Shown here piece by piece: positions 16,305-57,632 of a DNA stretch of 64,000 bases. Each line of letters starts with the position of its first letter. The stretch's first letter is position 1. Origin of the DNA: an uncultured Candidatus Binatia bacterium (GTDB lineage Bacteria; Desulfobacterota; Binatia; UBA9968; JAJDTQ01); contig OZ243984.1 in the NCBI GenBank assembly GCA_965214905.1, positions 3,504,628 to 3,568,627 on the forward strand, read 5' to 3'. The notes below the pieces were generated by a model, which had not been told where the DNA came from, made no database searches, and was given only the letters and a program-made list of their open reading frames with translations. Both the position numbers and the translations under genes were made by a program.

Positions 16305-16332
16305 CGGAGCGGGTTTGGAACCCGCCCGTACA
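16305..16332. repeat. GGGTTTGGAACCCGCCCGTAC hairpin repeat copy
   Basis: cggagcgggtttggaacccgcccgtacact. Confidence 0.5.
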
Positions 16333-16358
16333 CTCGGGTCTTTCCGTGGCTAAGGCTC

Positions 16359-16622
16359 TTAATGGGCATCCGGTTGGCCGACGATGACTTCCCGCGAGCG
16401 GACGGTCACGAGGCGGTCGAGGCGGCGCAGCATGATCTGTGCCGCCTCGACCGAGATGGCTTGCCCGAAGATGTGGTAACGTTCTCCGTCCAACCACTGG
16501 TTGTTGGCCCAGAAGGCGAACTCGTGTGGGGTAGGGGTGTGGCCGAGATCCCTGGCGCAACGCCGCACTACAAAGCCGAGCACGACTTTGCGGCCCTTGC
16601 CGTTGTCGACGCCGGACGACAT
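16359..16622 (-). CDS. Hypothetical protein (87 aa). It has good GC3 codon bias, but no RBS or homology was recognised.
   Basis: The ORF lies in the 570-bp gap between the amidohydrolase and cyclase genes and is flanked by two GGGTTTGAAACCCGCCC hairpin repeats. Confidence 0.3.
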   Translation of the reverse strand: MSSGVDNGKGRKVVLGFVVRRCARDLGHTPTPHEFAFWANNQWLDGERYHIFGQAISVEAAQIMLRRLDRLVTVRSREVIVGQPDAH

Positions 16623-16775
16623 ACTCGGGATTCTTAGGTGATTCCAGCGAGAGGTTCAACCCGATCACGGTAACCTGTGTCGCCGGAAGACGGGTGTCGC
16701 GTCCTGAACAGACTGTGGAGAAATCTGCGGGTCCTTTTCGCCGTCGGCTGCGCCTCGCGTGGCATCGGCCACAGG

Positions 16776-16796
16776 GTCGGGTTTGAAACCCGCCCG
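16776..16796. repeat. GGGTTTGAAACCCGCCC hairpin repeat copy
   Basis: ggtcgggtttgaaacccgcccgcg. Confidence 0.5.
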
Positions 16797-16843
16797 CGCC
16801 CGCCGCCGGGCGTCAGCGGAATACAGGCTCGAAGGAGGAGGCT

Positions 16844-17821
16844 TTGGCGACTCGAAGACGTCCGAAACTGACCATGGAGCGCATCCGGGAGGCGGCCGAG
16901 CGGCTGCGCAACTGGGGCCGGTGGGGCGAGGACGACGAGGTCGGCACGCTCAACTTTACCACCCCCGAGGACATCGTCGCCGCTGCGCAGCTCGTGCGCA
17001 AGGGCCGGGTGTTCTCCCTGGCCCTCGGTTTCGATGCCCAAGGCCCGCAGGGAGGCAAGAGCAACTACCCGGCCATGGGCCGCTTCAATCCCATCCACCT
17101 CATGCTTCGCACCGGGACGGACGCCTACGCGGGGGTGCTCGACCACCGGGGCATCCGGGGTGCTGACGACGTGATCATCATGCCGCTTCAGGCCGGCACT
17201 CAATGGGACGGGCTGGCGCACATCTTCTATGAAGACCGAATGTACAACGGCTACGACTGCCGGCTGGTGACCACCGGCGGCGCCGCCAAAAACGGCATCG
17301 AGAAGACCCGTGACAAGATGGTCGGGCGTGGAGTGTTGCTGGACGTGGCCCGGACCAAGGGCTCGGACTGGTTGAAGGACGGCTACGCCATCACCAACCG
17401 CGATCTCGACCGCACCCTGAAGGCCCAGGACGTGGAGGTGGGCCGGGGCGACTATCTGCTGGTGCGGACCGGGCAGATGAAGGCCAAGCTGGACGCCGGG
17501 TCCTGGGACGGCTATCCCGGCGGAGACGCCCCGGGGCTGGGCTTCGAAACCCTGGACTGGCTCCACACCCGGGAGGTGGCCGCGGTGGCCACCGACACCT
17601 GGGGAGTGGAGGTCCGGCCCAACCAGACCCGGGAGGCCAACCAGCCGTGGCACTGGGTCAGCATTCCGAACATGGGTCTCACCGTGGGCGAGATCTTCCA
17701 TCTGGAAGAGCTCGCCGAGGACTGCGCCGAGGACGGGCGTTACGAGTTCATGTTCGTGGCCCCCGCGCTGCCGGTCACCGGGGCGGTGGGTTCCCCCACC
17801 AATCCCTTGGCGATCAAGTGA
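16844..17821 (+). CDS. Cyclase family protein (kynurenine formamidase-like, PF04199)
   Basis: Typical cyclase-family composition and length. TTG at 16844 has a strong AAGGAGGAGG RBS; the alternative ATG is at 16874. Confidence 0.8.
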   Translation: MATRRRPKLTMERIREAAERLRNWGRWGEDDEVGTLNFTTPEDIVAAAQLVRKGRVFSLALGFDAQGPQGGKSNYPAMGRFNPIHLMLRTGTDAYAGVLDHRGIRGADDVIIMPLQAGTQWDGLAHIFYEDRMYNGYDCRLVTTGGAAKNGIEKTRDKMVGRGVLLDVARTKGSDWLKDGYAITNRDLDRTLKAQDVEVGRGDYLLVRTGQMKAKLDAGSWDGYPGGDAPGLGFETLDWLHTREVAAVATDTWGVEVRPNQTREANQPWHWVSIPNMGLTVGEIFHLEELAEDCAEDGRYEFMFVAPALPVTGAVGSPTNPLAIK

Positions 17822-17835
17822 TCGGAGCAAGCAAA

Positions 17836-17868
17836 ACGCACGGGCGGGTTTGAAACCCGCCCCTACGG
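17836..17868. repeat. GCACGGGCGGGTTTGAAACCCGCCCCTACGGG hairpin repeat copy in the cyclase-creatininase spacer
   Basis: Direct read. Confidence 0.55.
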
Positions 17869-17879
17869 GAGGAGACGAA

Positions 17880-18695
17880 ATGGCGGCGCAACGGGGCTCG
17901 GTATGGCTTCAGGAACTGACCTGGGAGGATGTCGCGGCCTATCTCGAAGATTCCGACATCATCATCTGTCCGGTGGGCAGCACGGAAGAGCACGGGCCGG
18001 CCGGCCCGCTCGGACTTGACTGCCTCATCGCCATTGCCCTGGCGGAAGACGTGGCCCGCGCCACGGGGACGCTGTGCACGCCGCCGCTGTGGTTCGGCGA
18101 CTCGCCGCATCACCTGGGTTTTCCGGGAACCATCTCGCTTCGTACCGAGACCCTGATGGCGGTGATCCAGGATATGAGCCGAAGTCTGGCCAAACACGGG
18201 TTCCGCAAGATTCTCATCATCAACGGACACAAGGGCGCCAACCTCCCCGGCCTGCTGGCGGCTACCAAGAACTTGCGTGAGTACGAGATGCCCGAGGTCT
18301 TCTTCGCGGTCATCGACCCGGTGAAAATCGCCAAGAAGATCGCCAACGAGATCAAGGAAGCGAGAGAGCATCACAGCGGGGAGCTGGAGATCTCGGAGTG
18401 CTGGTACAAGTATCCCCACCTGGTCAAGCAAGAGAAGCTGACCACGTCGCAGGTCGACTTCGAGGAGAATTTCTCGCCATGGTCACACGGAGACCTCTTC
18501 TCCGCGCCGCACGAGGTGATCGATATTCCCTGGACCAGCACGGAACAGCGCCGTATCGTGCCTAGCGGCTCCTTCAGTCCTTCCATCAAGGCCTCGCCCG
18601 AGAAAGGCAAGGCGTACCACGACTACATGGTCGATCAGATCGTGCAATTCATCGGGTGGCTGCGGGATTACGAAGGACCCGTGGCCCAGGTTTGA
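17880..18695 (+). CDS. Creatininase family protein (creatinine amidohydrolase-like)
   Basis: ...IICPVGSTEEHGP...GFPGTISL...INGHKGA motifs. GGGAGGAG RBS before the ATG at 17880. Confidence 0.85.
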   Translation: MAAQRGSVWLQELTWEDVAAYLEDSDIIICPVGSTEEHGPAGPLGLDCLIAIALAEDVARATGTLCTPPLWFGDSPHHLGFPGTISLRTETLMAVIQDMSRSLAKHGFRKILIINGHKGANLPGLLAATKNLREYEMPEVFFAVIDPVKIAKKIANEIKEAREHHSGELEISECWYKYPHLVKQEKLTTSQVDFEENFSPWSHGDLFSAPHEVIDIPWTSTEQRRIVPSGSFSPSIKASPEKGKAYHDYMVDQIVQFIGWLRDYEGPVAQV

Positions 18696-18706
18696 CGCGC
18701 GTGGAC

Positions 18707-19900
18707 ATGGACGGTTCACAAAGCCCGGCCGTCACCGGGCTTCCGGCGAATACATGGCGCCTGCACGCCCGTGGCAGGGAGATCTACCTTGTCGGCACGG
18801 CGCACGTGTCGTCGGAGAGCATCGAAGACGTGCGCAACACCGTGGAGATGGTGGAGCCTGACGCCATTTGCGTGGAGCTGTGCCAAGCCCGGTACGAGGC
18901 ATTGACACGGCCTGATGCATGGCAGAAGACGGACGTCTTCAAGGTCATCAAGGAGGGCAAGGCGGCCCTGCTGCTGAGCCAGTTGATCATGTCGGCGTTC
19001 TACAAGCGCATGGGCGATCGGCTCGGGGTCCGGCCCGGCGCCGATATGCTGGAGGGCGTCAATCTGGCCCATGAGCGGGACGTGGAGCTGGTGCTGGCCG
19101 ACCGCGACGTCCAGGTGACGATGAAGAGAACCTGGCGGCATCTCGGCGTCTGGAACAAGCTGAAGCTGCTCTTCCTGCTCGTCACCAGCGCGCTGGTGGA
19201 GCCGGACATCGACAAGGACGCCGTGGACGATCTCAAGCGGCCGGACCGGTTGGGGGATGTCCTGATGGAATTCGCCGAAGCCTTTCCAGCCGTGAAGCAA
19301 TGCATTATCGACGAGCGAGACATCTACCTGGCGCAGCGGATCAGGGAGGCCGAAGGGCAGAAGGTCGTGGCGGTGGTGGGCGCGGGGCACGTGCCGGGAA
19401 TCGCTCGTGAGATTCACCGGGACCACCCGCTCGCTCCCCTCGAAACGGTGCCCGAGCGCTCGTACGGGTCCAGGAGCATCAAGTGGCTGGTGCCTTCGCT
19501 GATCGTGGCAATCATCGCGTATGGATTCTATCGCGCCGGCGCCGCTCATTCCCTGGAGTCCATCTCCATCTGGGTGCTGGTGAACGGCGTACTTGCGGCC
19601 GTTGGGGCGGCTCTGGCTCTGGGCCATCCGGTAACGGTGCTGGCCGCGTTCCTGGCGGCGCCCATCACCAGCCTCAACCCGACCATCGCCGCCGGATGGG
19701 TCTCGGGACTGGTTCAGGCCTGGGTCAAGAAGCCGACGGTGGCCGACCTCGAGGCAATGCCCGAGGTGGTGACGTCGTTTCCCAAGGGGCTTTGGCGGAA
19801 CACCGTCTCGCGTATACTGCTTGTGGTGGTATTCTCGAACCTGGGAAGCACCTTGGGAACGTTCATCGGCGGCAGTTGGATCGCCGCACGTTCGTTCTAG
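18707..19900 (+). CDS. TraB/GumN family protein
   Basis: EIYLVGTAHVSSESIEDVRNTVE...VELCQARY motif, and C-terminal TM segments. Confidence 0.8.
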   Translation: MDGSQSPAVTGLPANTWRLHARGREIYLVGTAHVSSESIEDVRNTVEMVEPDAICVELCQARYEALTRPDAWQKTDVFKVIKEGKAALLLSQLIMSAFYKRMGDRLGVRPGADMLEGVNLAHERDVELVLADRDVQVTMKRTWRHLGVWNKLKLLFLLVTSALVEPDIDKDAVDDLKRPDRLGDVLMEFAEAFPAVKQCIIDERDIYLAQRIREAEGQKVVAVVGAGHVPGIAREIHRDHPLAPLETVPERSYGSRSIKWLVPSLIVAIIAYGFYRAGAAHSLESISIWVLVNGVLAAVGAALALGHPVTVLAAFLAAPITSLNPTIAAGWVSGLVQAWVKKPTVADLEAMPEVVTSFPKGLWRNTVSRILLVVVFSNLGSTLGTFIGGSWIAARSF

Positions 19901-19952
19901 TGTTGCGTTTCATATTTGCGATGACTCATCACCGAGCCATTTGGACAGCCCT

Positions 19953-20100
19953 TCCGACTCCCTCTCCCTCTGGGAGAGGGTTGGGGTGAGGGTCCCCCGT
20001 GTGCGAGCCGCCGGTTGGGAGCGACCAGTAAAGGAGGGCAGGTTTGTTCGGGGCGCCCTCACCCGGCCTTCGGCCACCCTCTCCCAGAGGGAGAGGGGAG
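19953..20100. repeat. Inverted pair of roughly 33-bp palindromic units (CCCTCTCCCTCTGGGAGAGGG core) about 65 bp apart; a REP-like element
   Basis: 19953-19990 ccctctccctctgggagagggttggggtgaggg; 20058-20100 is its reverse complement plus an extra GGCCTTCGGCC hairpin. Confidence 0.7.
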
Positions 20101-20175
20101 TTATTCATCGCCGACCACTTCTTGCGGGAACGGGGTGAAGACATGGGACAGGGTCAACACATTTACGGAACGCGA

Positions 20176-20372
20176 CTCCAGGAGCCTGTATCGGCCGGTA
20201 GCGCGATGCAGGCAGGGGCGGGTTTCTACGGCGCAGGCTCCTAGGAGTCTGCGCCGTAGAACAGTTTTGGGCACATTATCATACCACATGTAGTGTTAAT
20301 GGAGTTACTATAACGCTATATATAGTGGCTAAGATTTCCTACGGCGCAGGCTCCTAGGAGCCTGTATCGGTT
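20176..20372. repeat. Composite REP/MITE-like element: a degenerate hairpin, then a perfect 34-bp palindrome CTACGGCGCAGGCTCCTAGGAG(T)CTGCGCCGTAG, then a 79-bp AT-rich insert (20259-20337), then a second half-palindrome
   Basis: This is a direct read of the sequence. The insert is about 33% GC against a roughly 65% background. Both flanks share the ...CTACGGCGCAGGCTCCTAGGAGCCTGTATCGG motif. Confidence 0.7.
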
Positions 20373-20413
20373 GATTCGTGTGAAGTATCCGTTTTCTCGA
20401 CAGGAGGGTACCC

Positions 20414-21139
20414 ATGGCAGAACCGGCAAACGTCAAGATCGGCTTCGTCACGCCGATATCGAGTTCCAGTCCCCACTTCGAGCCGTTCAAGGCGTTCATT
20501 CCCAAGGACGTGGAGATGGAATTCGAAGGTCTCGGAATCGTCCGCGGGTCCCTGGAGAGCCTCCGCGGCACCGGAGACAGGGTCGTGGAGACATCGGCCC
20601 GGCTGGCGCGGGAGCGCGGGTGGCAGGGCGTCATCGTCAGCGGGGCGCCGGTGGAAGTGCTCAACCCCGGACTGCTGGCGAGATTGAAGGACGCCGTGGA
20701 CGTGCCGGTGACGACGGCGCTGGAGTCCTGCGCCGAAGCGCTGAAGTCTCTTTCGACCCCCAGGGTGCTGCTGCTGACCCCGTTCGTCGAGTCCATGAAC
20801 AAGCTGATCCGCGACTATCTCGCCGACTGCGGCATCGAGGCAATCTCGCCCGCGGATACCTTCGACGACTATCGCGACGCGATGACGGTCGAACCCGACG
20901 AGGTGTACGCACTGACGGAAACGGCGTTCAAGGCGAACCCGGAGGTGCAGGCGATCTACTTCCAGGGAGCGGTGCTGGATCCGTTGAAGGTTCTGGACCG
21001 GATCGAGCACGATATGGCGAGACCGGTGGTGGCGAGCAATCCGGCCATGCTCTGGTTCATGCTCTCCAGGGTGGGTTTCTCGTGCAGCATTTCCGGCTAC
21101 GGAACGCTGTTGCGGGACTGGCCCGGCATCAAGAGCTGA
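20414..21139 (+). CDS. Asp/Glu/hydantoin racemase superfamily protein (arylmalonate decarboxylase / maleate isomerase-like)
   Basis: 241 aa with an Asp/Glu-racemase-like two-lobe pattern (...VLLLTPFVE..., ...IYFQGAVLD...). RBS is CAGGAGGG. Confidence 0.65.
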   Translation: MAEPANVKIGFVTPISSSSPHFEPFKAFIPKDVEMEFEGLGIVRGSLESLRGTGDRVVETSARLARERGWQGVIVSGAPVEVLNPGLLARLKDAVDVPVTTALESCAEALKSLSTPRVLLLTPFVESMNKLIRDYLADCGIEAISPADTFDDYRDAMTVEPDEVYALTETAFKANPEVQAIYFQGAVLDPLKVLDRIEHDMARPVVASNPAMLWFMLSRVGFSCSISGYGTLLRDWPGIKS

Positions 21140-21226
21140 GAAGCGGACGGGCCCTCTCGCCCCTTGTTTTCTTGCGGGAGGGGCGAGAGAGCGTCCGAGA
21201 CGGCAAGGTCCGGCGCGTCCCGCGCG

Positions 21227-24200
21227 TTACGCCCAGAATCTTGCGTAGCCCCAACCGAGGGCTCCGAGCCCCACCACCGCGCCGAAGATCCACTGCCAGT
21301 AGGGCTCCAGCACCAGCTTTCCCTCGATCTGCTGCTTGAGAGCGTCACGTTCAGCCGCCGCCACGGTCACCTGCCGGGTGAGTTCCTGTTTGTCTGCACC
21401 CAGGGCTGTTACCGCCTGTTCTTTTTCTGCGCGGGTCTGTTCGAGTGAGCGGGTGGTTTCATCGAGCTGTTGCTGCAGTCGAGCGGCAGTCTGGTCGTGG
21501 GCGGCAGCGAGGGAGGCGAGTTTTTCTGCGGCCTCCCGTTCCTTGGCGGCGAGGTCGGCTGCGGCCTGTTCTTTTTCTGCGCGGGTCTGTTCGAGTGAGC
21601 GGGTGGTTTCATCGAGCTGTTGCTGCAGTCGAGCGGCGGTCTGGTCGTGGGCGGCGGCGAGGGAGGCGAGTTTTTCTGCGGCCTCCCGTTCCTTGGCGGC
21701 GAGGTCGGCTGCGGCCTGTTCTTTTTCTGCGCGGGTCTGTTCGAGTGAGCGGGTGGTTTCATCGAGCTGTTGCTGCAGTCGAGCGGCGGTCTGGTCGTGG
21801 GCGGCGGCGAGGGAGGCGAGTTTTTCTGCGGCCTCCCGTTCCTTGGCGGCGAGGTCGGCTGCGGCCTGATCCTTTTCTGCGCGAGTTAGTTCGAGCGCAC
21901 GGGTGGTTTCATCGAGCTGTTGCTGCAGTCGAGCGGCGGTCTGGTCGTGGGCGGCGGCGAGGGAGGCGAGTTTTTCTGCGGCCTCCCGTTCTTTGGCGGC
22001 GAGGTCGGCTGTAGCCTGATCCTTTTCTGCGCGAGTTAGTTCGAGTGAGCGGGTGGTTTCATCGAGCTGTTGCTGCAGTCGAGCGGCGGTCTGGTCGTGG
22101 GCGGCGGCGAGGGAGGCGAGTTTTTCTGCGGCCTCCCGTTCTTTGGCGGCGAGGTCGGCTGTAGCCTGTTCTTTTTCGATCCGGTTTTGTTCAAGTGAGC
22201 GGGCTACCTCGGCCAAGCGCTTTTCAAGCTGTTCTATGGCGTTTTGATGCGCGGACGCCAGCGTGGCCATTTGCAATGCCAACTGTTGTTTGTCCGCGGT
22301 CAACGCGCCCATCGCCCGTTGTCGCTCGGCCTCCGTCTTCTCCAGGGAACGTTCCGTTTCGGCGAGTTGCTGCTCGAGTCGACGCCTGGCTGCATCGTCG
22401 GCAGGGTCTTGCGCCGCCATCTCCTGTTTGAGGGCGGCCAGTTCGGCCTGAGCCTGTGCCTTTTCGGTCCGGGCCTTCTCCAGTGATGTTGTGGTTTGAT
22501 CCAGTTGTTGTCGTAACTGTTGGACGGCCTGTTCATGGCCGGCCGTCAACTCCGTCAACTGTTGCGTGAGGTCCCGTTGGTCCGCGGTCAGGCCAGCGAG
22601 TGCCAGTTCCTTTTCGACCCGTGTCTGTGCCAGAGAACGTGTGGTCTGATCCAGTCGTTGCTGTAACTGTTGGACGGCCCGTTCATGGGCGGCCGTCAAC
22701 TCCGTCAACTGTTGCGTGAGATCCCGTTGACTGGCGGTGAGGGCAGCGAGTTCCTGGTCCTTTTGCGTCCGGACCTGTTCCAGAGAACCCGTGGCTTGCG
22801 CCAGTTGTTGCTGTAGCTGTTGGACGGCCTGCTCATGGGCAGCAGTGAGGGACGTGAGGCTTTGTGTGGTTTGTTTTTCCTTGGCGGCCAAGTCGTCCAG
22901 CGCATTTACGTTCTCGGCGCGGGATTGTTCGAGGGCGCGCGTGGTTTGGTCGAGTTGTTGCTGTAGCTGTTGGACGGCCTGATCATGGGCGGCGTTGAGA
23001 GACGCAATTTTTTGCACGGCCTCCTGTTCTTTGGCGGCGAGGTCGTCCAGGGTTTTTTCGTTTTCGGCGCGGGATTGTTCGAGGGAGCGGGTGGTTTGGC
23101 CGAGTTGTTGCTGTAGCTGTTGGACGGCCTGATCATGGGCGGCAGTGAGAGATGCGATTTTTTGAGCGGCGGCCTGTTCTTTGGCGGCGAGGTCGTCCAG
23201 GGTTTTTACGTTTTCGGCGCGGGACTGTTCGAGGGAGCGGGCGGTTTGGCCGAGTTGCTGCTGTAGCTGTTGGACGGCCTGATCATGGGCGGCAGTGAGA
23301 GATGCGATTTTTTGAGCGGCGGCCTGTTCTTTGGCGGCGAGGTCGTCCCGGGTTTTTACGTTTTCGGCGCGGGACTGTTCGAGGGAGCGGGTGGTTTGGC
23401 CGAGTTGTCGCTGTAGCTGTTGAACGGCCTGATCATGGGCGGCAGTGAGGGAGGCAATTTTTTGAGCGGCGGCCTGCTCTTTGGCGGCGAGGTCGTCCCG
23501 GGTTTTTTCATTTTCGGCGCGAGACTGTTCGAGGGAGCGGGTGGTTTGGCCGAGTTGCTGCCGTAGCTGTTGGACGGCCTGGTCGTGGGCGGCGTTGAGG
23601 GAGGCGACCTTCCGGGCGGCTTCCTCCTCCCCGGCGGCGAGGTCGTCCAGGGTTTTTTCGTTTTCGGCGCGGGATTGTTCGAGGGAGCGCGTCACCTGTG
23701 ACAACTGCTGCTCCAGTCGAGCCAGAGACGTTTTCTGGGTAGCGACTTCGGCCTCCAGGGACTGCCTGAGTGCGTTCAGCCGGTCGGTTTCGGTGCTCAT
23801 CTCTGTGATGGCACGGTCCTGCTGTGCGACCTGGGCAGCCAGCCCTTCCACTTGTGCGCTCAGTTCGTCCCGCTTGCGCACGAGTGCGGCGAAGTCGTCC
23901 TCCAGCGCGGTCTTGGCCGTGGTCAGAAGCGCGTTCTGCTGCACCAGAGAATCTCTCAGACTGGCCAGCTCCCGAGTCCTCGCGTTCAAGTCCAGCACGG
24001 TGGACGTTCTCTGGTCGAGCTGTACGGTGAGTTCATCGACGGTTCCGAGCGTGCTGTCCCTCTCGGCCGTCAAAGCGGCGACTCTCCGCCGGTACCGGTC
24101 CGCCGTGCGGCGTCCCTCGTCAATGACAGCGCTCATTTCCTGTCCGACCTGGGCCAGGGACGCCGTCAACTGGTTGATCTGCCGTTGGGCGTCCGCGAGC

Positions 24201-24445
24201 TCCCGCCCCCTCGACTCGATCAACTCCTCGGATCGGTTTGCGTCTTGCGTAAGCTGATCGACTCTGGCTTCGAGCGCGGTGACCTCCTGGCCTCGTTGCC
24301 GGAGGTCTTGCGTGAGGGCGGCGTTTGCCGCCTCGACGCTTTGCTTTTCGCGGTTCAGTTGCTCATGTTCTTCGACCGAGACGCATGAGGCGAGGGACAC
24401 GAATAGTGCGCCCAGAAGGCAAAGGGTTTTGGTGTGGTGCATCAT
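21227..24445 (-). CDS. Giant coiled-coil repeat protein (about 1070 aa). It has an N-terminal lipoprotein signal (…LFVSLASC) and a C-terminal hydrophobic anchor (…YWQWIFGAVVGLGALGWGYARFWA).
   Basis: The start MMHHTKTLCLLGALFVSLASC carries the lipobox LASC. The central roughly 750 aa are 50-aa heptad-rich repeats (…AAKEREAAEKLASLAAAHDQTAARLQQQLDETTRSLEQTRAEKEQAAADL…). Confidence 0.8.
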   Translation of the reverse strand: MMHHTKTLCLLGALFVSLASCVSVEEHEQLNREKQSVEAANAALTQDLRQRGQEVTALEARVDQLTQDANRSEELIESRGRELADAQRQINQLTASLAQVGQEMSAVIDEGRRTADRYRRRVAALTAERDSTLGTVDELTVQLDQRTSTVLDLNARTRELASLRDSLVQQNALLTTAKTALEDDFAALVRKRDELSAQVEGLAAQVAQQDRAITEMSTETDRLNALRQSLEAEVATQKTSLARLEQQLSQVTRSLEQSRAENEKTLDDLAAGEEEAARKVASLNAAHDQAVQQLRQQLGQTTRSLEQSRAENEKTRDDLAAKEQAAAQKIASLTAAHDQAVQQLQRQLGQTTRSLEQSRAENVKTRDDLAAKEQAAAQKIASLTAAHDQAVQQLQQQLGQTARSLEQSRAENVKTLDDLAAKEQAAAQKIASLTAAHDQAVQQLQQQLGQTTRSLEQSRAENEKTLDDLAAKEQEAVQKIASLNAAHDQAVQQLQQQLDQTTRALEQSRAENVNALDDLAAKEKQTTQSLTSLTAAHEQAVQQLQQQLAQATGSLEQVRTQKDQELAALTASQRDLTQQLTELTAAHERAVQQLQQRLDQTTRSLAQTRVEKELALAGLTADQRDLTQQLTELTAGHEQAVQQLRQQLDQTTTSLEKARTEKAQAQAELAALKQEMAAQDPADDAARRRLEQQLAETERSLEKTEAERQRAMGALTADKQQLALQMATLASAHQNAIEQLEKRLAEVARSLEQNRIEKEQATADLAAKEREAAEKLASLAAAHDQTAARLQQQLDETTRSLELTRAEKDQATADLAAKEREAAEKLASLAAAHDQTAARLQQQLDETTRALELTRAEKDQAAADLAAKEREAAEKLASLAAAHDQTAARLQQQLDETTRSLEQTRAEKEQAAADLAAKEREAAEKLASLAAAHDQTAARLQQQLDETTRSLEQTRAEKEQAAADLAAKEREAAEKLASLAAAHDQTAARLQQQLDETTRSLEQTRAEKEQAVTALGADKQELTRQVTVAAAERDALKQQIEGKLVLEPYWQWIFGAVVGLGALGWGYARFWA
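21380..23700. repeat. Tandem array of about 15 copies of a 150-bp unit inside the coiled-coil gene. Several copies are identical (for example 21481-21630, 21631-21780 and 21781-21930).
   Basis: Seen directly. Lines 21541-21600 and 21691-21750 are identical, and the period is 150 bp, which equals 50 aa. Confidence 0.85.
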
Positions 24446-24651
24446 ACCGTTGGTTCCGTTTATGGGCGGTTTCGCGACGCATGTAGTGGCGCGCGCCGCA
24501 AACACGCCGATGTTACAAAGTGTCAAGTACCTAGCAGACTTGGGCGGCAACAAGCAACGCCAGAACGTCCAACGACCTGTTTCCACACGGCGGGAGCGGG
24601 TCGGAAGCCCCCTCGCGCGGGCGTTCCGCGTGACCGGCCAGGACCTTCCCA

Positions 24652-25827
24652 TTAGATGACCTGTCGGCCGCGTAGCTCTTCGATGGCGCCCGGGGCGTAC
24701 CCCAGGGCTTGCAGGATTTCGTCGGTATTCTCACCGAGCATCGGCGGAGGCGTCGGAGTCTCCGGCGGCGTGCGGCTCATGTTGACGCCGCTGCCCACCA
24801 GCTTCACCTTCCCCATCGTCGGGTGCTCCACTTCGATGGGGAAGCCGTACTGCCGCACCTGCGGATCGTTGAACACGTCCTCGAGGTTGTTCAACGGGGT
24901 GGAGGGCACGTCGTGCTCTTCAAGCTTGCGCAGCCACACGTCGCGCGAGTCCCGGCCAAAGATGACCTGCAGTTCCTCTTCCAGCAGGTCGTGGTTGTCG
25001 GTGCGGCCCTTCTTGTCCGCGAATCGTGCATCTTCGGCCCATTCAGGCCTCCCGACGACTTCCAGCAGGCCGAGCCAGAACTTGGTGGGCGAGGAAAGGT
25101 GTACCACGAAGGGTTTGCCGTCCCGGTCGACGAATGCAAAGACGCCGGCGGTGCGGGTGCGGTCGGCCCGGCCGGGCACCACGCCGGTCTCGAAGAAACG
25201 GGCGCAGTTCTCCGCGGTGAACGACACCGACGCCCGCAGCAGGGACGTTTCGATGATCTGTCCCTCTCCGGTCATCATCCGGTTCACCAGCGCCGCCAGC
25301 ACGCCGTAGCACGCGTAGACCCCGGTGAGGTGGTCGGACAGGGATATGCCCATGCCCTTGGGTTGGTCGGGATCGGTGAGCAGGCTCAGCAACCCGCTCA
25401 TTCCCTGGCCCACGGTATCGAAGCCGGGCCGGTCACGATACGGTCCTTCCTGGCCGAAGCCGGAGATGGAGCAGTAGATGATCCTGGGGTTCAACGGGCG
25501 AATCGAGTGGTAATCCAGGCCCCGGCGGGCCATGACGCCCGGGCGGTGGTTCTCGATCAGCACGTCGGCCTCGGCCGCCAGCCGGCGGCAGATGTCCCGG
25601 CCCTCCTCGCTGCGGATGTCCAGGGTGATGCTCTTCTTGTTCCGGTTCAGGCTGCAGAAGGTGGCCGAATAGAGTCGCTCGCCCCAGCCCCGGAACGGAT
25701 CGCCGTGTTCCCGTTCCTCGACCTTGATGACTTCGGCGCCGAGGTCGGCCATGAGCATGGAAGCGAACGGGCCGGTGACGTAGCTGGCCAGCTCCAGGAT
25801 CCTTATGCCTTCGAGTGTTCCCGCCAT
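24652..25827 (-). CDS. CoA transferase, family III (CaiB/BaiF-like)
   Basis: The N-terminus LEGIRILELASYVTGPFASMLMADLGAEVIKVE is the family III CoA-transferase signature. Confidence 0.9.
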   Translation of the reverse strand: MAGTLEGIRILELASYVTGPFASMLMADLGAEVIKVEEREHGDPFRGWGERLYSATFCSLNRNKKSITLDIRSEEGRDICRRLAAEADVLIENHRPGVMARRGLDYHSIRPLNPRIIYCSISGFGQEGPYRDRPGFDTVGQGMSGLLSLLTDPDQPKGMGISLSDHLTGVYACYGVLAALVNRMMTGEGQIIETSLLRASVSFTAENCARFFETGVVPGRADRTRTAGVFAFVDRDGKPFVVHLSSPTKFWLGLLEVVGRPEWAEDARFADKKGRTDNHDLLEEELQVIFGRDSRDVWLRKLEEHDVPSTPLNNLEDVFNDPQVRQYGFPIEVEHPTMGKVKLVGSGVNMSRTPPETPTPPPMLGENTDEILQALGYAPGAIEELRGRQVI

Positions 25828-25831
25828 GGTG

Positions 25832-33235: not shown

Positions 33236-34522
33236 TTGAATGCATCAGCCGCCGATCCTGCCTCCGCTCGCACGGCCCGGCTCAACCGCGCCTATCCGTG
33301 GGTCGTATTAGGCATCTCGTTCATGACCGTAGCCGCAGCCTTCGGGTGCCGCGGGGCGTTCGCGCTCTTCTTCGTGGCGGTCATCGAAGAGTTTCACTGG
33401 AGCCGCGGGTTGTCCGCGGGCGCGCTGACCCTGGGCTCGGTGGCGTGGACCCTGTCCGCGCCGCTGTGGGGGCAGATGTTGGACCGCCTCGGGCCCCGGG
33501 TGGTGTTCCCCGTGGGCGCGGGCCTTATGGCCGCGGGCTTCATCGTCAGCGCCATGACCCGGCACGTCTGGCAGTACTATCTCGGAATGGGGCTTTTGGT
33601 GGGTCTCGGTTTCGCCGCGCTGCCGATGACCTCCCAGGCCACGGTCATCAGCAACTGGTTCGTCCGCAAGCGCGGCATGGCCATGGGCCTTGCGGCTGCG
33701 GGCATCGGCGCCGGCATCTTCCTGGTGGTGCCCGCCACCGAGATGCTGATCGTCGAGTTCGGCTGGCGCAACGCCTATCTGGTTTTGGCCGCGGTGATGC
33801 TTGCGGCGGTGGTCCCGCCTAACCTGTTCCTTCAACGCCGCCGCCCGCAGGATATGGGACTGCGGCCGGATTTCGGTGCCGCCGCCGTTGCCCCGAGCGC
33901 GGGTGCGGGTCGGGTACGGGCCGGCGGCGGGACTCTCGCCGAGGCCCTGTGCAGCTTCCGTTTCTGGACGCTGGCCCTGAGCTTCCTGCTGGGCGCGCTC
34001 CCCGTGCATATGGTGTTGGTGCACCAAGTGGCCGCCATGGTGGATGCGGGTTTTTCACGAGAGTTGGGAGCCTGGGTATTGAGCCTTACCGGGTTCTTCA
34101 CCATCTTCACCATGATCGGCATGGGGGCGCTATCGGACCGTGTCGGCCGGGAGTGGGCGTACACCATGGGAACCGTGGCCTTGGTGGCCGGCATTTTGTT
34201 CATTCTCTATCTCGACGGCACGTCGCGGTTTCTGCTGATCACCCTGTATCCGCCGCTTTTCGCCGTGGGTTTCGGGTCGCGCCAATCCCTCTATCCGACC
34301 GTTGCGGCCGATATATTCCATGGCGCCCATTTCGGTTCCATCATCGGCGTGCTGGCGGTTTGCATCGGTATCGGCGCGGGTGTGGGACCGTGGCTCGCGG
34401 GATACCTCTTTGACGTCTCGGGCAGCTACGCCAGCTCATGCTGGACCGCCATCGCCATGTGTGTGCTATCGTTGGGGTGTTTCTGGGCCACGGCGCCAAG
34501 CAAGGGGCCGAATTCCATGTAG
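33236..34522 (+). CDS. MFS transporter (OFA/oxalate-formate antiporter-like)
   Basis: ...NRAYPWVVLGISFMTVAAAFG... MFS_OFA-like N-terminus and 12 TM segments. TTG start. Confidence 0.75.
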   Translation: MNASAADPASARTARLNRAYPWVVLGISFMTVAAAFGCRGAFALFFVAVIEEFHWSRGLSAGALTLGSVAWTLSAPLWGQMLDRLGPRVVFPVGAGLMAAGFIVSAMTRHVWQYYLGMGLLVGLGFAALPMTSQATVISNWFVRKRGMAMGLAAAGIGAGIFLVVPATEMLIVEFGWRNAYLVLAAVMLAAVVPPNLFLQRRRPQDMGLRPDFGAAAVAPSAGAGRVRAGGGTLAEALCSFRFWTLALSFLLGALPVHMVLVHQVAAMVDAGFSRELGAWVLSLTGFFTIFTMIGMGALSDRVGREWAYTMGTVALVAGILFILYLDGTSRFLLITLYPPLFAVGFGSRQSLYPTVAADIFHGAHFGSIIGVLAVCIGIGAGVGPWLAGYLFDVSGSYASSCWTAIAMCVLSLGCFWATAPSKGPNSM

Positions 34523-34545
34523 GGCGGGTTTCAACCCGGACCGTG
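34520..34545. repeat. GGGCGGGTTTCAACCCGG hairpin repeat copy
   Basis: agggcgggtttcaacccggaccgtg; a member of the GGGTTTGAAACCC family. Confidence 0.5.
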
Positions 34546-34652
34546 TGGAATTCGCCTTGGCCGGGCCACTGCCTGGCTCGGACAGGCGCAAGAAAAGACG
34601 AACACACAAAACCGGACGAACACGTGAAACCTTTTGCATACCTGGAGCAGCC

Positions 34653-46920: not shown

Positions 46921-46992
46921 AAGATTGAAAATAGCGGCCTGATCGGCCGAGCGCAACAGGGTTCGACGGCCCGCCGAAAAGATCGCTGGCAG

Positions 46993-47088
46993 CCGGTATC
47001 GGCCGGTAGCGCGATGCGGGCACGGGCGGGTTTGAAACCCGACCCTGCACCGGGTGTCCTGGTTCTACGGCTCAGGCTCCTGGCGCCG
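46993..47088. repeat. Composite REP/MITE-like element (TATCGGCCGGTAGCGCGATGCGGGCACGGGCGGGTTTGAAACCCG...GTTCTACGGCTCAGGCTCCTGG)
   Basis: It shares over 80% of its positions with the copies at 52962-53056 and 20176-20258. Confidence 0.7.
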
Positions 47089-50648: not shown

Positions 50649-50690
50649 GTTCTTCCCGTCCTTTCGATCGTCGCCGCGTCCGACTGGAGG

Positions 50691-51908: not shown

Positions 51909-52037
51909 GAGTCATAGAGGGTGCGGGCAATCCAGTCAAGGTGCCTTGGCCGCGCGGGCGAGGGTGACAAGGGGCGGCGCATGGGGCATAAAGGCTCCAC
52001 CGCCTTCGAGCGGGAACCGACCAGCGGAGGTTGTTCG

Positions 52038-52934
52038 ATGGTTTTCAGGATCGGCACAGCGGACACCGGCGGTACTTTCGACACCCAGGGCACGGCTATT
52101 GCCGAGGTGTTCAACCAGTCTCGTCCGCCGGAGGAACGCTGTGAGCTCACCCGAAGCTCGGCAAGCATCGACAACGCCAACCGGCTGGACCGGGGTGAGA
52201 TCGAGTTCGGCTTCATGGCTTCCAACTGGGTCCCCCGGGCAGCTCGGGGAACGGCGCCCTTCGACCATCCCATCGGACTGCGCATGGCGTCGCCGGCCAA
52301 TGCCGGCCCGATATTCTTCGTCACGCTGGCCGATACGCCCATGGACAACATCGGCGAGCTCGCCGGCAAACGGGTGGCGGTGGGGGCCCGGGACAGCGGC
52401 ATGACCCAGCACGTCCACACCCTTTGCGACGCCCTGGGCATTCCCTTCTCGGACTTCACCCCGGTCTATCTGGGTTTCCCCGAAGGGGCCGACGCGTTGG
52501 TGGCGGGAGAGGTCGACGTCCAGTTCCAGTGCCCGGTCCCCAACGCGGTGATGACGGACCTGAGCCGGCGGGCCCGGGTCAAGGTGGTCCCGTACCGGGA
52601 GGATCAGATCGAGCAGGTGTCGTCGAAGGTATTCTTCTACCGGCGGGTGCTGATGCGCCGGGGCGTATTCCGGGGAGTGGATGACGACATTCCCCAACTC
52701 GCGGTGCTCAACGTTCTGGTGACCCACGAGCGCGTGGACGAGGAGATCGTCCATTCCCTGGTATCCGCGTTGGTGGAGAACACCGGGCCGCTGGCGCGGC
52801 TCAACCCCTTGTTCGAAGGTCTCGCCGACCTGTACGAACCGCTGCGGAGCCGGGGGCCGGAGGCGTTGGAACTCGATGGAGCGCCGCTGCATCCAGGCGC
52901 CTTGAGGGCGTACCGGGATGCGGGCTATCTTTAG
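52038..52934 (+). CDS. TAXI-family TRAP transporter solute receptor-like protein
   Basis: ...GTADTGGTFDTQGTAIAEV...FGFMASNW... TAXI pattern. GGAGG RBS. No obvious signal peptide and no adjacent permease. Confidence 0.65.
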   Translation: MVFRIGTADTGGTFDTQGTAIAEVFNQSRPPEERCELTRSSASIDNANRLDRGEIEFGFMASNWVPRAARGTAPFDHPIGLRMASPANAGPIFFVTLADTPMDNIGELAGKRVAVGARDSGMTQHVHTLCDALGIPFSDFTPVYLGFPEGADALVAGEVDVQFQCPVPNAVMTDLSRRARVKVVPYREDQIEQVSSKVFFYRRVLMRRGVFRGVDDDIPQLAVLNVLVTHERVDEEIVHSLVSALVENTGPLARLNPLFEGLADLYEPLRSRGPEALELDGAPLHPGALRAYRDAGYL

Positions 52935-52961
52935 TGGGGCAGGCCCGTATCCGGGCCAGGA

Positions 52962-53056
52962 GCCGGTATCGGGCGGTAGCGCGACGCGGGCACGGACGGG
53001 ATTGAAACCCGCCCGTGCATCGGGCGTCCGAGTTCTACGGCGCAGGCTGCTACGAT
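52962..53056. repeat. Composite REP/MITE-like element (CAGGAGCCGGTATCGGGCGGTAGCGCGACGCGGGCACGGACGGGATTGAAACCCGCCCGTGC...GTTCTACGGCGCAGGCTGCTACG)
   Basis: It lies between convergent gene ends. Confidence 0.7.
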
Positions 53057-54423: not shown

Positions 54424-54567
54424 CAGGTTCTCCTAATTTGCGATTGGTGAGGGATGCGGTATTTGGACCGCGATGATATTGACCCGACAGAATAGGGAAT
54501 CGCGGTCGTATATGCAAGCAAAATCGCGCCTGTGCGCATCTTTTCGGACGGAAACGGCGGCCGCGGG

Positions 54568-56055
54568 TCAGGCGGCCTCGCTCTTTGCCGGAGTGTCCCG
54601 GCCGGACGGAGGCTCACGGCCGGCGGCGGATTGCAGGTAGATGGAGACGCGGGTGCCTTTTCCCAACTGGCTCTCGATCTTCAGATCGCCGCCGTGGGCC
54701 TGGGCGATGTGCTTGACGATGGCGAGGCCGAGGCCGGTTCCGCCCAGCTCCCGGGACCGCGCCTTGTCCACGCGGTAGAATCGTTCGGTGAGCCGGGGCA
54801 GGTCCTTGTCCGGGATGCCGCAGCCGGTATCCGACACGGTCAACGCCACCCGGGGCGCCCCATCGCCGTTCGACTTCGGCTCGAAGCCTGCACGGACCAG
54901 CACCTCGCCGCGGTCGGGGGTGTACTTGAGGGCATTATCGATAAGATTGATGAGCAACTGCTGCAAGCGATCTTCGTCTCCCAGGATATCCGGCGTACCG
55001 GTGTCCACCTCGGCGCGGATACGGATGCGTTTCTTGCCGGCCTGATCGCGAAACAACTCCAGCATGCGTTCCAACAGCGGCTTCGTCGCCACCTGCTGCA
55101 TCCTCACGTTGACGTTGCCCATCTCCAGGTCCGACAGGGCGAGCAGATCGTCGATGAGCCGGCCCAGACGCTCGGAGTGGCGCGTGACGACGTTGAGGAA
55201 CTGCCGCGCCGTTCGCGGGTCGTCGGGCGGGTTGTGCAACAGCGTCTCGGCATAGCCCTGTATGGCCGTCAGCGGCGTGCGCATCTCATGGGAGACGTTG
55301 GCGACGAAATCGGCGCGGATCTGTTCGAGCCGCTTCAACTCGGTGACCTCGTGGAACACGAGCACGTAACCCAGGAGGGCTTGCGGCGAGTGCTCCAGCC
55401 GCGCGGCGTTGACCGCGAACCAGCGGTCGTCCCCGAGGGTCATCTCCCGATGGAGCGCATCGCGGCCGCTTTCTCCTTCCACCACTTCGCGAATGAGGGT
55501 CTGCATCTCCGGATGGCGTGAGACCTCGACGCTGGACATGCGGCGGACACGGGTGTCCGCGGGCAGGTCGAACATCATCCGAGCCATCTGGTTCACGAGG
55601 ATGACCTGGCCGTGGATGTCCAGCACGATCACGCCTTCCATCATGCAACTCAGGATGGACTGGAGCTTCTCCCTCTCCGCCGTCATGTCCTGAAGGCGGC
55701 CGTTCAGCGTGTGAGCCAACTCGTTGAGGCCCTCCTCCAACGCTCCCAACTCATCCCGGCGTCGTACCGGAAGCACCTTGTCGGACGGAGTTTCGAGGCT
55801 GGCCTTGCGGCAGAAAGCCACCATGTCGGCGACGCGGGTTCGTCCTCGTCGGAGCCACACGGCCGCCGCCAGGAGTCCGACCGGAACGGCCAACCACAGG
55901 GCGCTCGGCAACCAGGCCGCGGCGGCGTTCCGGGATGCTTCGGCCGGCTGCGAGTTCGCGTATTGAGAATGGATGAAGGCCAGGACCAGGAGAGTGAGGG
56001 GGAGGTAGCCAAGACACCACCTGGCCAGCACGCTATGTCTCCAGGGATCTTTCAT
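54568..56055 (-). CDS. phoR: Phosphate regulon sensor histidine kinase
   Basis: TM, HAMP, PAS, HisKA (SHEMRTPLT) and HATPase_c (GGTGLGLAIVKH) domains. ATGA overlap with phoB. Confidence 0.8.
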   Translation of the reverse strand: MKDPWRHSVLARWCLGYLPLTLLVLAFIHSQYANSQPAEASRNAAAAWLPSALWLAVPVGLLAAAVWLRRGRTRVADMVAFCRKASLETPSDKVLPVRRRDELGALEEGLNELAHTLNGRLQDMTAEREKLQSILSCMMEGVIVLDIHGQVILVNQMARMMFDLPADTRVRRMSSVEVSRHPEMQTLIREVVEGESGRDALHREMTLGDDRWFAVNAARLEHSPQALLGYVLVFHEVTELKRLEQIRADFVANVSHEMRTPLTAIQGYAETLLHNPPDDPRTARQFLNVVTRHSERLGRLIDDLLALSDLEMGNVNVRMQQVATKPLLERMLELFRDQAGKKRIRIRAEVDTGTPDILGDEDRLQQLLINLIDNALKYTPDRGEVLVRAGFEPKSNGDGAPRVALTVSDTGCGIPDKDLPRLTERFYRVDKARSRELGGTGLGLAIVKHIAQAHGGDLKIESQLGKGTRVSIYLQSAAGREPPSGRDTPAKSEAA

Positions 56056-56743
56056 CCAGTTTGTAGCCTACGCCGCGTACCGTGACGATCCACCCGGGAT
56101 TCCGGTCATGGTGTTCCAGGGCTTCCCGGATCCTTCGGATGTGGACATCCACCGTACGAGGCGTCACATACACGTCGGAGCGCCATACGCCATCGAGAAT
56201 CTGGTCCCGGCTCAGCACCCGGTTGCGATTCTGAATCAGAAACCGGAGAACTTCAAACCCTTTGAGGGTGAGCCTGACCGGCCTCCCCCCGACCTGCACC
56301 TCGTAGGTCGTGAAGTCGACCTTCAGGGGGCCCTTCTCGTAGATCTCGGCCAGGTCGGGCGAAGCCGGAGACTCGGTTCGCCGCAGCACCGCCTTGACCC
56401 GCGCCACCATCTCCCTGGGGCTGAAGGGTTTCGTGATGTAGTCGTCCGCCCCCAGTTCCAGGCCCACCACGCGGTCGGCTTCCCCTGCCTTTGCGGTGAG
56501 CATGAGGATCGGCGTTTGGGCGGTTTCGGGGGTTTGCCGGATGATCTTGCAGAACTCGAGGCCGGAGAGGCCGGGCAACATCAGGTCGAGCACGATGAGG
56601 CGTGGCGTCTCCTTCCGCACCAGGTCCAGAGCGTCTTCACCGTTCTCGGCTTCCAGCACCCGAAAACGCTCCTGATGCAGATGGTACGAAACCAGCCTGC
56701 GTATGTCCTCCTCGTCCTCGACGACGAGGATTTTGTCGGCCAT
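56033..56743 (-). CDS. phoB: Phosphate regulon response regulator (OmpR/PhoB family)
   Basis: Receiver domain (DLMLPGLSG...MLTAK) plus winged-helix domain (RTVDVHIRRIREAL). GGGAG RBS. Confidence 0.85.
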   Translation of the reverse strand: MADKILVVEDEEDIRRLVSYHLHQERFRVLEAENGEDALDLVRKETPRLIVLDLMLPGLSGLEFCKIIRQTPETAQTPILMLTAKAGEADRVVGLELGADDYITKPFSPREMVARVKAVLRRTESPASPDLAEIYEKGPLKVDFTTYEVQVGGRPVRLTLKGFEVLRFLIQNRNRVLSRDQILDGVWRSDVYVTPRTVDVHIRRIREALEHHDRNPGWIVTVRGVGYKLDERSLET

Positions 56744-56761
56744 GAGGCTCCCGTGCTTCGT

Positions 56762-57448
56762 TCAGATGAACCGAGGCACTTCCTTGACGTGGCGAATGCT
56801 GGTCCCCTTGACCAGGAATACGACCATTTCCGCGATGTTGGTGGCATGGTCCGCGATTCGTTCCAGGTATTTCGAAACGAAAGTGATCTTCATGGCGCGG
56901 TTGATGGTCCTGGGCTCGCTGATCATGTACGAGACCGTCTCGCGGAAGATCTGCTCGTTCAGGTCGTCGATCTCCTGGTCGTCCTGGCAGACCTTGAGCG
57001 CCAACGAGGTGTCCTCGTGCACGAAGGCGTTCAGGCTTTCCGATATCATCCGCCGGGAGATTTCGGCCATGCGCGGTATGTCGATGTAGGGTTTGAGCGG
57101 GGCCTCGCGGATCAACTCGATTGAACGCTCGGAAATATTCACCGAGATGTCGCCGATGCGTTCCAGGTCCGTCGTGATCTTGAGCGCCGTCGTCACGAAC
57201 CGAAGGTCCTTGGCCGTGGGCTGGTGCAGGGCGATCAGGCGCACGCACAACTCGTCGATGTCGGCGTCCATCCGGTTGACCTCGGCATCTCTTTCGATGA
57301 CGGCTTCGGCGAGCGCTGCTTCGCGTTCCACCAGCGCCTTGATGGATCGGTCGATCTGGTCCTCCACCAGGCCGCCCATCTGTATGATCCTGTCGCGGAG
57401 CGACTTGAGCTCTTCCTCGTATTTCCGATCGGTGTGTTCAGGGCGCAT
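56762..57448 (-). CDS. phoU: Phosphate signalling complex protein PhoU
   Basis: Duplicated PhoU helices (...DLERIGD..., ...YLERIADHATNIAE). Confidence 0.9.
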   Translation of the reverse strand: MRPEHTDRKYEEELKSLRDRIIQMGGLVEDQIDRSIKALVEREAALAEAVIERDAEVNRMDADIDELCVRLIALHQPTAKDLRFVTTALKITTDLERIGDISVNISERSIELIREAPLKPYIDIPRMAEISRRMISESLNAFVHEDTSLALKVCQDDQEIDDLNEQIFRETVSYMISEPRTINRAMKITFVSKYLERIADHATNIAEMVVFLVKGTSIRHVKEVPRFI

Positions 57449-57478
57449 GGGCGGCCTCGCGGGTATGGCAACGCCGAT

Positions 57479-57524
57479 TGTCACGGATACAGGTCGCCAC
57501 ACGATGTCGGTGGTTCGTGTGACG
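57479..57524. promoter_or_regulatory. Nested palindrome upstream of phoU (TGTCAC...CACACGA-N10-TCGTGTG...GTGACG); a candidate operator
   Basis: Seen directly about 30-75 bp upstream of the phoU ATG. It does not fit the E. coli Pho-box repeat geometry. Confidence 0.25.
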
Positions 57525-57555
57525 TTACCATTACAATCGCATTAAATTCAAAGAT

Positions 57556-57632
57556 CTACGGGGTTGCAGGGGCGGGTTTCCAACCCGCCCCTGCAACCCG
57601 TTCATCCCCGTTCTACGGCGCCGGCTCCTAGT
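57556..57632. repeat. REP/MITE-like element with a perfect 38-bp palindrome (GGGTTGCAGGGGCGGGTTTCCAACCCGCCCCTGCAACCC) followed by GTTCTACGGCGCCGGCTCCTAG
   Basis: Seen directly. Located between the rng stop and the phoU promoter region. Confidence 0.75.

Follow-up and report, generated by a model that had tools for sequence, protein, structure and literature searches.

Nested palindromic repeats in the intergenic spacers of a Binatia genome

The window analyzed here is a 64,000-nt stretch of an uncultured Candidatus Binatia bacterium (assembly GCA_965214905.1, contig OZ243984.1, positions 3,504,628 to 3,568,627 of the forward strand), the spacers of which harbor a family of nested palindromic repeats. 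These repeats are selfish DNA, an ordinary but neatly layered family in which a repetitive extragenic palindrome (REP) lies within longer carriers that resemble miniature inverted-repeat transposable elements (MITEs). The genes flanking the sites, whose families were confirmed with Pfam, encode amidohydrolase, cyclase, creatininase, TraB/GumN-family, Amdase, MFS, M16 peptidase, sigma-54 activator, NMT1_3, pyruvate carboxylase subunit B-like, PhoU, RNase E/G, HNH, and SMC proteins. Searching the window for the core GGGCGGGTTTSAAACCCGCCC with up to 3 mismatches retrieved seven matches, starting at 16307, 16775, 17842, 34522, 47024, 52994, and 57570, versus 0.00 in 100 shuffles; an eighth, truncated core lies at ~20217, and core density is about one per 8 kb. 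The right end of the longer units (GTTCTACGGCGCAGGCTCCTAG) was found six times against 0 expected by chance, and the left end (CTAGGAGCCTGTATCGG) four times against 0.15. All eight sites are intergenic, in a window that is ~88% coding according to rough gene calls. An earlier note on this DNA had described a nested palindromic intergenic family of at least 8 copies, and these counts bear it out. Its two modules, A and B, do recur; the exact strings given for them are consensus sequences, and the full B palindrome, of which the right end is a half-site, is present only once, at 20223-20262, where two right ends abut head to head.

Two kinds of carrier hold the core at their apex, and a GCGCGATG-N-GTAG stretch beside the core is common to both. 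The type I carrier (~95 nt) was defined by alignment and with a profile (nhmmer) built from its two best copies. Its ends, CTAGGAGCCTG.../...CAGGCTCCTAG, form an 11-nt perfect repeat that extends imperfectly to ~22-25 nt via a CCG(G)TAG motif. All oriented type I copies lie on the + strand. Full copies, 87% identical to each other, occupy 46986-47083 (+), between the M16 peptidase and sigma-54 activator genes, and 52956-53053 (+), between the NMT1_3 and pyruvate carboxylase subunit B-like genes. Two further sites had also been listed as A+B composites; one of them, 20178-20247 (+), has suffered an internal deletion from the core loop to the right arm (joining GGGTTT to CTACGG), and the other, 57556-57631 (+), downstream of RNase G, is a partial copy consisting of core and right arm only. 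Conversely, the site at 16305, taken for module A alone, is a decayed full-length type I composite (16279-16362, +; core at 16307-16327), as indicated by alignment and by nhmmer matches over most of the model. It takes up the whole interval from the amidohydrolase stop (16271) to the stop (16359) of a small open reading frame (ORF) on the opposite strand.

Type II carriers are 160 to 195 nt long when complete, with ends CTAGTGTGGTGTC... and near-perfect terminal inverted repeats (TIRs) of ~35 nt that start CTAGTGTGGTGTCT. The second supposed solo module, at 16776, turned out to be the center of such a carrier in minus orientation (16696-16853, −; ~160 nt; core at 16775-16795), which lacks one TIR and was recognized by a type II model built from copies in two other loci, L107 and L205 (nhmmer E=1.6e-30); it occupies the spacer from which the small ORF and the cyclase gene diverge. 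(L numbers designate the loci fetched from other genomes.) The remaining cores are a solo REP, GCACGGGCGGGTTTGAAACCCGCCCCTAC at 17838-17866 (+), which has a single CTAC foot and separates the cyclase stop from the creatininase start, and a degenerate REP, GTAGGGCGGGTTTCAACCCGGACCGTG at 34518-34548 (−), the GTAG foot of which holds the stop of the MFS gene. Three copies lie among the amidohydrolase, cyclase, and creatininase genes, as had been stated, but the operon-like gene run, the transcripts of which they were said perhaps to punctuate, is interrupted by an opposite-strand 87-aa ORF, which was also called in both relatives.

The spacer at 19.9-20.4 kb is a pile-up of repeat remnants. A degenerate type II end coincides with the TraB stop; the spacer also contains two inverted arms of an unrelated repeat (CCCTCTCCC...GGGAGAGGG), the type I copy with the internal deletion, right-type ends in inverted orientation (20241-20357; 26 nt, 96% complementary) on both sides of 74-79 nt of AT-rich DNA, and a solo left end (20354-20372, +) that matches CTAGGAGCCTGTATCGG exactly and abuts the preceding right end. 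The DNA fold of 20241-20357 has a z score of −9.1, and CTAG is common to the adjoining copies. The AT-rich cargo (20263-20336) was compared with the AT-rich stretch 57449-57555 as a candidate homologue, and the match was no better than with shuffles; the latter stretch is the native rng-phoU spacer, common to L206. A further candidate, the solo end proposed right after smc at 63727, was likewise rejected: 63726-63742 (+) fails the 3-mismatch search for the left end and belongs to the native smc-ftsY spacer, with counterparts in the relatives L200 (TCTGAGGAGCCCCTG) and L206 (TCTAGGGCCGGCAG).

Two side observations concern other repeats of this region. A different repeat, CCCTCTCCCTCTGGGAGAGGGTTGGGGTGAGGG, forms an inverted pair at 19955-20099, its arms separated by ~64 nt. 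Over 45/45 nt, one of these arms is identical to positions 6088-6132 of L004 (Thermodesulfobacteriota metagenome-assembled genome [MAG] OZ220712.1), where the spacer is 10 nt; it looks like a second REP/REPIN-like family common to more than one genome (REPINs are REP doublets forming hairpins). On the minus strand (21227-24652), a 1141-aa ORF consists mostly of 150-nt (50-aa) tandem repeats, with at least 14 copies in two blocks that are up to 99-100% identical within a block. Its sole Pfam match is weak and of coiled-coil type (FAM184, below the cut-off), and L204 has an unannotated 429-aa gene at about the same position.

The core is a REP, mostly GTAG-footed elsewhere, found in many phyla

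The core, GGGCGGG-TTTSAAA-CCCGCCC, is a GC-rich stem-loop with a 9- to 11-bp stem, three G-C pairs at the stem base, and a TTTSAAA loop. DNA folding returned this central hairpin as the stable part of every fold. A scan for GGCGGGTTTSAAACCCGCC over one genome per species placed the core 19-mer in at least 119 genome loci, distributed over roughly 18 phyla among the matches listed, whereas, by our estimate, a random 18-mer in which a single position is two-fold degenerate would have ~9 chance matches in the DNA scanned. The phyla listed include Chloroflexota (many Dehalococcoidia), Binatia, Thermodesulfobacteriota/"Deltaproteobacteria", Myxococcota, Nitrospirota, Pseudomonadota, Bacteroidota, and Actinomycetota, together with Bacillota, Gemmatimonadota, Planctomycetota, Omnitrophota, Fibrobacterota, Deinococcota, Acidobacteriota, and others. 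A GT[AG]G foot on the 5′ side and/or a C[TC]AC foot on the 3′ side accompanies 128 of the 148 core instances listed from other genomes (86%), and 34 have both; the footed unit is GTAGGGGCGGGTTTSAAACCCGCCCCTAC. We also considered whether the central loop base (C or G) is tied to the side of the GTAG foot, and no association was found among the 148 cores.

According to Quentin et al. 2018 (PMC6006769), the REPs of subclass 2.4 TnpA_REP proteins, i.e., RAYT group 4 (RAYT: REP-associated tyrosine transposase), come in a "canonical long" form, in which three G-C pairs make up the base of the stem, and a "double foot" form, which combines a 5′ GT[AG]G with a 3′ C[TC]AC. Di Nocera et al. 2013 (PMC3733652) place GTAG REPs in Chloroflexi and other phyla and note that REP termini often supply TAG stops. 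Because its stem, three basal G-C pairs, and, in most instances from other genomes, GTAG/CTAC feet match those of subclass 2.4 REPs (PMC6006769), the core is a REP of the TnpA_REP (RAYT) subclass 2.4 kind. A literature search found the core sequence in no paper, and the consulted portions of PMC6006769 and PMC3733652 do not state that one near-identical core occurs in roughly 18 phyla.

The core flanks and lies within RAYT-like genes in other genomes

In L017, a RAYT-like gene has one core 40 nt upstream and a second one inside, which is read as RAGLKPAPT and forms a GC-rich island in an otherwise AT-rich gene. L087 likewise has the core inside a RAYT-like gene, in the other orientation and frame, where it is read as RRGGFQTRP. 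The L087 protein scored 33.9 bits against Pfam Y1_Tnp, and the two proteins scored 51.7 and 77.9 bits against NCBIfam REP_Tyr_transpos, below its cut-off of 80. Among the best 120 RAYT homologues, many of which are named RayT by their sources, 53 carry GAG[FL]KPAP or GGF[QE]TRP, which are the core in translation, just after the HUH motif. The core is therefore linked to RAYT genes in other genomes: it has the stem and feet of subclass 2.4 REPs and both adjoins and sits in-frame inside RAYT-like genes, so that the REP/RAYT-type affinity suggested by the earlier note is supported.

Two observations on these genes stand apart. In many RAYT homologues (P0242-P0288), the HUH motif is followed by stuttering pieces of the REP-encoded peptide (e.g., VRAGDVRAGDVRAGLKPAPT and KPAPTKPAPTKPAHIKPAPT), which suggests repeated partial REP insertions or slippage inside the RAYT gene. 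The core also lies inside decayed RAYT fragments (IIPNHVRGILVLVEAGFKPAST...) of L024 (4447-5088) and L035 (6745-6927; Chloroflexota MAG CAXXUG01); because it sits in such fragments, some "extragenic" cores may be relics of RAYT pseudogenes.

Carriers in other genomes

Apart from the window, metagenome contig L195 was the only place with exact type I ends. Diverged whole type I units occur in Binatia MAGs, namely, in L051 and L100 (OZ244869.1) and in L107 (OZ253480.1). L107 additionally has, at 4400-5100 and 6780-7240, tandem arrays built of five 142-bp and four 109-bp units, with the REP core or a variant of it in each unit; these arrays resemble clusters of the bacterial interspersed mosaic element (BIME) type. 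Type II copies were detected in L107, L205, L004, L204, L206, L100, and L026. The type II carrier of L206 has another hairpin, GGGGGCGACCGTAGGTCGCCCC, at its apex, and the apex REP is thus a separable module. The composite arm had no match in the viral collection or in a first metagenome scan. A second, looser metagenome scan returned 79 loci, nearly all of them chance matches, the real ones being L195, L124/L173, and L185. Neither type I nor type II had a match in the plasmid database.

Both carrier types are bounded by TIRs, measure 95 to 195 nt, and have no coding capacity, in agreement with the MITE-like character that had been proposed for the family. Type I contains a single central REP rather than the two inverted REPs of a REPIN. 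Whole-unit DNA folds of the two best type I copies gave z scores of −1.96 and −0.80 relative to shuffled sequences, only the central stem being robust.

Element ends supply stop codons

Several genes in the window end within repeat sequence. RNase G terminates as ...KTD-TAG in the window versus ...ETDAS-TGA in L200, and its stop is the terminal CTA of the 57556-57631 copy. In the carboxylase gene the original TAG is now AAA, and the ORF runs four codons further, to the TAG derived from the terminal CTA of 52956-53053. The MFS gene (33236-34522) stops in the GTAG foot of the REP at 34518-34548, and at 16279-16362 both convergent stop codons fall at the places expected for the CTAG termini. Since CTAG contains TAG on either strand, a copy landing in or just after the last codons of a gene would supply its stop; insertions of this kind are probably tolerated because the CTAG end provides the stop codon.

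A related observation was made at the TraB/GumN-family gene, the TAG stop of which lies in a CTAGTGT... sequence matching the type II terminal repeat both in the window (19897-19912) and in L204 (12018-12040). The window has a degenerate version of this match and L204 an intact one, and the sequence is a solo carrier end fixed at the gene end in both genomes.

Copies are gained and lost among close relatives

Syntenic relatives at 83-89% identity were found by protein searches. L200, whose pyruvate carboxylase B is 89% identical, corresponds to 45.5-64 kb of the window and lacks any copy over 21 kb; its sigma-54 activator/M16 spacer measures 148 bp and holds no element, versus 232 bp in the window. 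L204 (~83% nucleotide identity, on a 3.97-Mb contig) corresponds to 1.4-34.3 kb and, over 20.8 kb, contains no copy of type I. Its amidohydrolase/small-ORF spacer is 17 nt long versus 87 nt in the window, and its TraB/Amdase spacer is 69 nt versus 513 nt. Type II is represented in L204 by one full copy and a solo TIR, at positions other than those of the window. The type II carrier at 16696-16853 is absent at this site in both L204 and L205. Where the window has the single REP at 17838, L205 (~88% identity) shows an inverted REP doublet (GTAGG-core-CGTGC, 17 nt, GGGCGGGCCTGAAACCCGCCCCTAC) and L204 unrelated sequence. L206 (Thermodesulfobacteriota MAG OZ220712.1), with a pyruvate carboxylase B in the same 90% cluster as that of the window, an affinity that serves to place the lineage of the window, has the same native ~110-nt rng-phoU spacer, but without the element; the 57556-57631 copy is absent at this junction in L200 as well. 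Because orthologous spacers in the relatives are empty, the elements are gained and lost on the timescale separating these genomes and are not conserved regulators.

The comparison of these junctions yielded further observations. The ~110-nt spacer upstream of phoU (57449-57555 in the window, 6860-6971 in L206) is conserved and partly AT-rich and could be a promoter or leader for pho genes; L200 lacks it, and rng and phoU overlap there by 11 nt. The NMT1_3 gene (51921-52934; substrate-binding protein-like) beside the 52956 copy is absent from L200, where the carboxylase and MFS genes are 72 bp apart, and a gene-sized indel thus adjoins this element. In the Syntrophobacter sp. SbD2 MAG (L076), a REP core at 6581-6599 lies ~58 nt downstream of the RNase G stop and is followed by a T-run. 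This locus is syntenic with 57.6-63.7 kb of the window, with 66-76% nucleotide identity in rng, HNH, and smc, and its neighbor on the other side differs; the core at the rng end is either an independent insertion at the same gene end or a case of long retention. Between RNase G and smc, the HNH endonuclease gene (59407-60018) keeps its position in L200, L206, and L076.

How the repeats may spread

We consider RAYT-dependent spread of REP-centered units the probable explanation, at somewhat better than even chances. The repeats would be nonautonomous selfish elements in two layers, an inner REP and an outer carrier. The inner REP would be the cognate hairpin of a RAYT (TnpA_REP, a Y1 HUH enzyme) of subclass 2.4/group 4, with GTAG/CTAC as its ancestral feet. 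With GTAG as their guide, characterized TnpA_REP enzymes make cuts at CT or CA dinucleotides on the 5′ and 3′ sides of the REP, without target duplication (PMC8266576). By analogy with the characterized TnpA_REP, the protein would bind the folded single-stranded hairpin together with its GTAG guide. Cuts at CT or CA on either side would then allow the segment to be moved or copied without duplicating the target. In the outer layer, the REP of this lineage, an uncultured Thermodesulfobacteriota-like group, occupies the apex of at least two longer carriers with inverted repeats starting CTAG, copies of which also occur in Binatia MAGs; these carriers may spread as units into short spacers at gene ends, where they would degrade through deletions and accumulate on top of one another. 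Type I units terminate with ...CT, and CT or CC precedes them, a pattern that fits TnpA_REP cutting yet carries little information. A RAYT is the putative mobilizing enzyme in this genome.

Several observations weigh against this explanation. No RAYT gene was found in the 64-kb window or in the fetched loci of close relatives. Only two of the eight window cores retain an intact GTAG/CTAC foot (CCTAC at 17838-17866 and GTAGG at 34518); in the type I copies the stem is instead extended by GCAC/GTGC, and GTAG/CTAC lies 15-20 nt away in the arms. Unlike REPINs, the two best type I copies form no long single hairpin beyond that of shuffled sequence. The long inverted terminal repeats with TA or CTAG ends give the carriers the look of a DDE-transposase MITE. 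Finally, copies are at most 87% identical, and there is therefore no sign of very recent movement.

It is possible, if rather doubtful, that the carriers of both types are classical MITEs mobilized in trans by DDE transposases that recognize double-stranded TIRs (e.g., IS5-like enzymes targeting CTAG or IS630-like ones targeting TA), the REP being a passenger inserted into or captured by the MITE. The 11-nt perfect and ~22- to 25-nt imperfect end repeat of type I, the near-perfect ~35-nt TIRs of type II, and the recurrence of the same right-type ends around unrelated AT-rich cargo at 20241-20357 all speak for such an origin, as do the CTAG common to end-to-end junctions, the TA that follows four of five right ends, and the apex hairpin of type II that differs between genomes. 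However, no transposase gene bounded by carrier ends was found in ~1.4 Mb of fetched loci, the plasmid searches being equally negative, and the flanks reveal no clean target duplication in the filled and empty pairs compared. Those of type I read CCAG, CTGG, or CTAC besides CTAG, all of which may be part of the repeat or a TA/CTAG duplication, and those of type II are inconsistent (GGCT/GCCA in L100, TTCC-T/TTCC in L206). Moreover, since the GCGCGATG-N-GTAG stretch by the core is common to both carriers, the arms look like part of the REP unit.

The earlier note had suggested roles as terminators or mRNA stabilizers. That the elements are kept by selection as RNA signals (terminators, attenuators, or mRNA-protecting 3′ hairpins), with repetition reflecting shared function rather than mobility, is improbable. 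Stable GC-rich hairpins do lie within ~10-40 nt of the stops at 16279, 17838, 34518, 52956, and 57556, a core is also found downstream of rng in the more distant L076, and E. coli REPs stabilize upstream mRNA. Nevertheless, the hairpins lack a U-tract: a T4+ or A4+ run occurs near the core in just 14 of the 148 instances listed from other genomes, and the scan of 16-21 kb for intrinsic terminators flagged a single core, on the strand opposite to the flanking genes. One copy (16696-16853) occupies a divergent promoter spacer, type I orientation is constant whatever the gene direction, and the elements are absent at the orthologous sites of L200, L204, and L206, which encode the same genes. Rfam returned 0 matches in the whole window. 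A terminator or stabilizer function as the main role is thus poorly supported. An effect on RNA 3′ ends is possible as a by-product.

Resemblance by chance or composition in a genome of 63% G+C, where GC-rich palindromes might arise independently and many spurious weak inverted repeats were indeed detected in the window, or an assembly artifact, has a negligible probability; it is refuted by the shuffle controls (zero matches for the core and the right-end module) and by independent genomes, the same elements being present in independent assemblies and long-read MAG chromosomes, and 98-nt copies that are 87% identical likewise argue against it.

Significance

For the annotation of this genome and related MAGs, the repeats explain odd intergenic palindromes, the altered C termini or stops of RNase G, pyruvate carboxylase subunit B, MFS, and TraB-family genes, and spurious ORFs with peptides such as GAGLKPAP and RGGFQTRP. 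They extend a described family, the GTAG REPs, to poorly studied lineages and leave current understanding unchanged. They also provide a concrete example of one REP core common to many phyla together with its RAYT gene, and the nesting of REPs in TIR-bounded carriers is relevant to the relationship between REPs, REPINs, and MITEs. Of greatest interest as a lead is this near-identical core with its RAYT gene across phyla and its capture at the apex of CTAG-ended carriers. A speculative extension, which we put forward tentatively and regard as unlikely, is that a near-identical 29- to 33-nt double-foot REP persists across ~18 phyla by traveling in-frame, just behind the HUH motif, inside its own RAYT gene, re-seeding hosts, and has in addition been captured in the Thermodesulfobacteriota/Binatia group at the apex of CTAG-ended long-palindrome carriers; these would then constitute a distinct class, REP-tipped MITEs, with an exchangeable apex and termini selected as two-way stops.

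Comparison with known systems

The closest relatives of the core are the subclass 2.4 GTAG REPs (PMC6006769; PMC3733652). Both share a perfect GC-rich stem with three basal G-C pairs, GT[AG]G and/or C[TC]AC feet, an extragenic location, TAG-supplying termini, and a distribution over many phyla. The window copies differ in that most lack a foot or have GCAC/GTGC instead and in that the REP occupies the apex of TIR-bounded carriers; moreover, no RAYT was seen in the window.

REPINs, said to have been described in Pseudomonas fluorescens by Bertels and Rainey in 2011, are similar as ~100-nt palindromic units that contain REP sequence, spread as units, and occupy single-copy spacers. A true inverted REP doublet was seen only in L205, whereas type I has one central REP and no long hairpin beyond shuffled sequence.

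The REP/BIME system of E. coli also combines short palindromes with other motifs in mosaic intergenic clusters or arrays, of which the pile-up at 19.9-20.4 kb and the L107 arrays are the counterparts here, and it shares the link to a Y1 transposase that cuts at CT. IHF, gyrase, and Pol I are host proteins known to bind BIMEs. The sequence is a different one, the stem is perfect rather than bulged, and the carriers have defined inverted termini. These termini recall the MITEs Correia/NEMIS, RUP, and Nezha, which likewise measure 70 to 300 bp, are noncoding, have TIRs and TA-containing ends, and insert next to genes. The carriers differ from these MITEs in having no matching autonomous insertion sequence, as far as the fetched loci and plasmids show, and no proven target duplication, and their center is a REP tied to the Y1 class.

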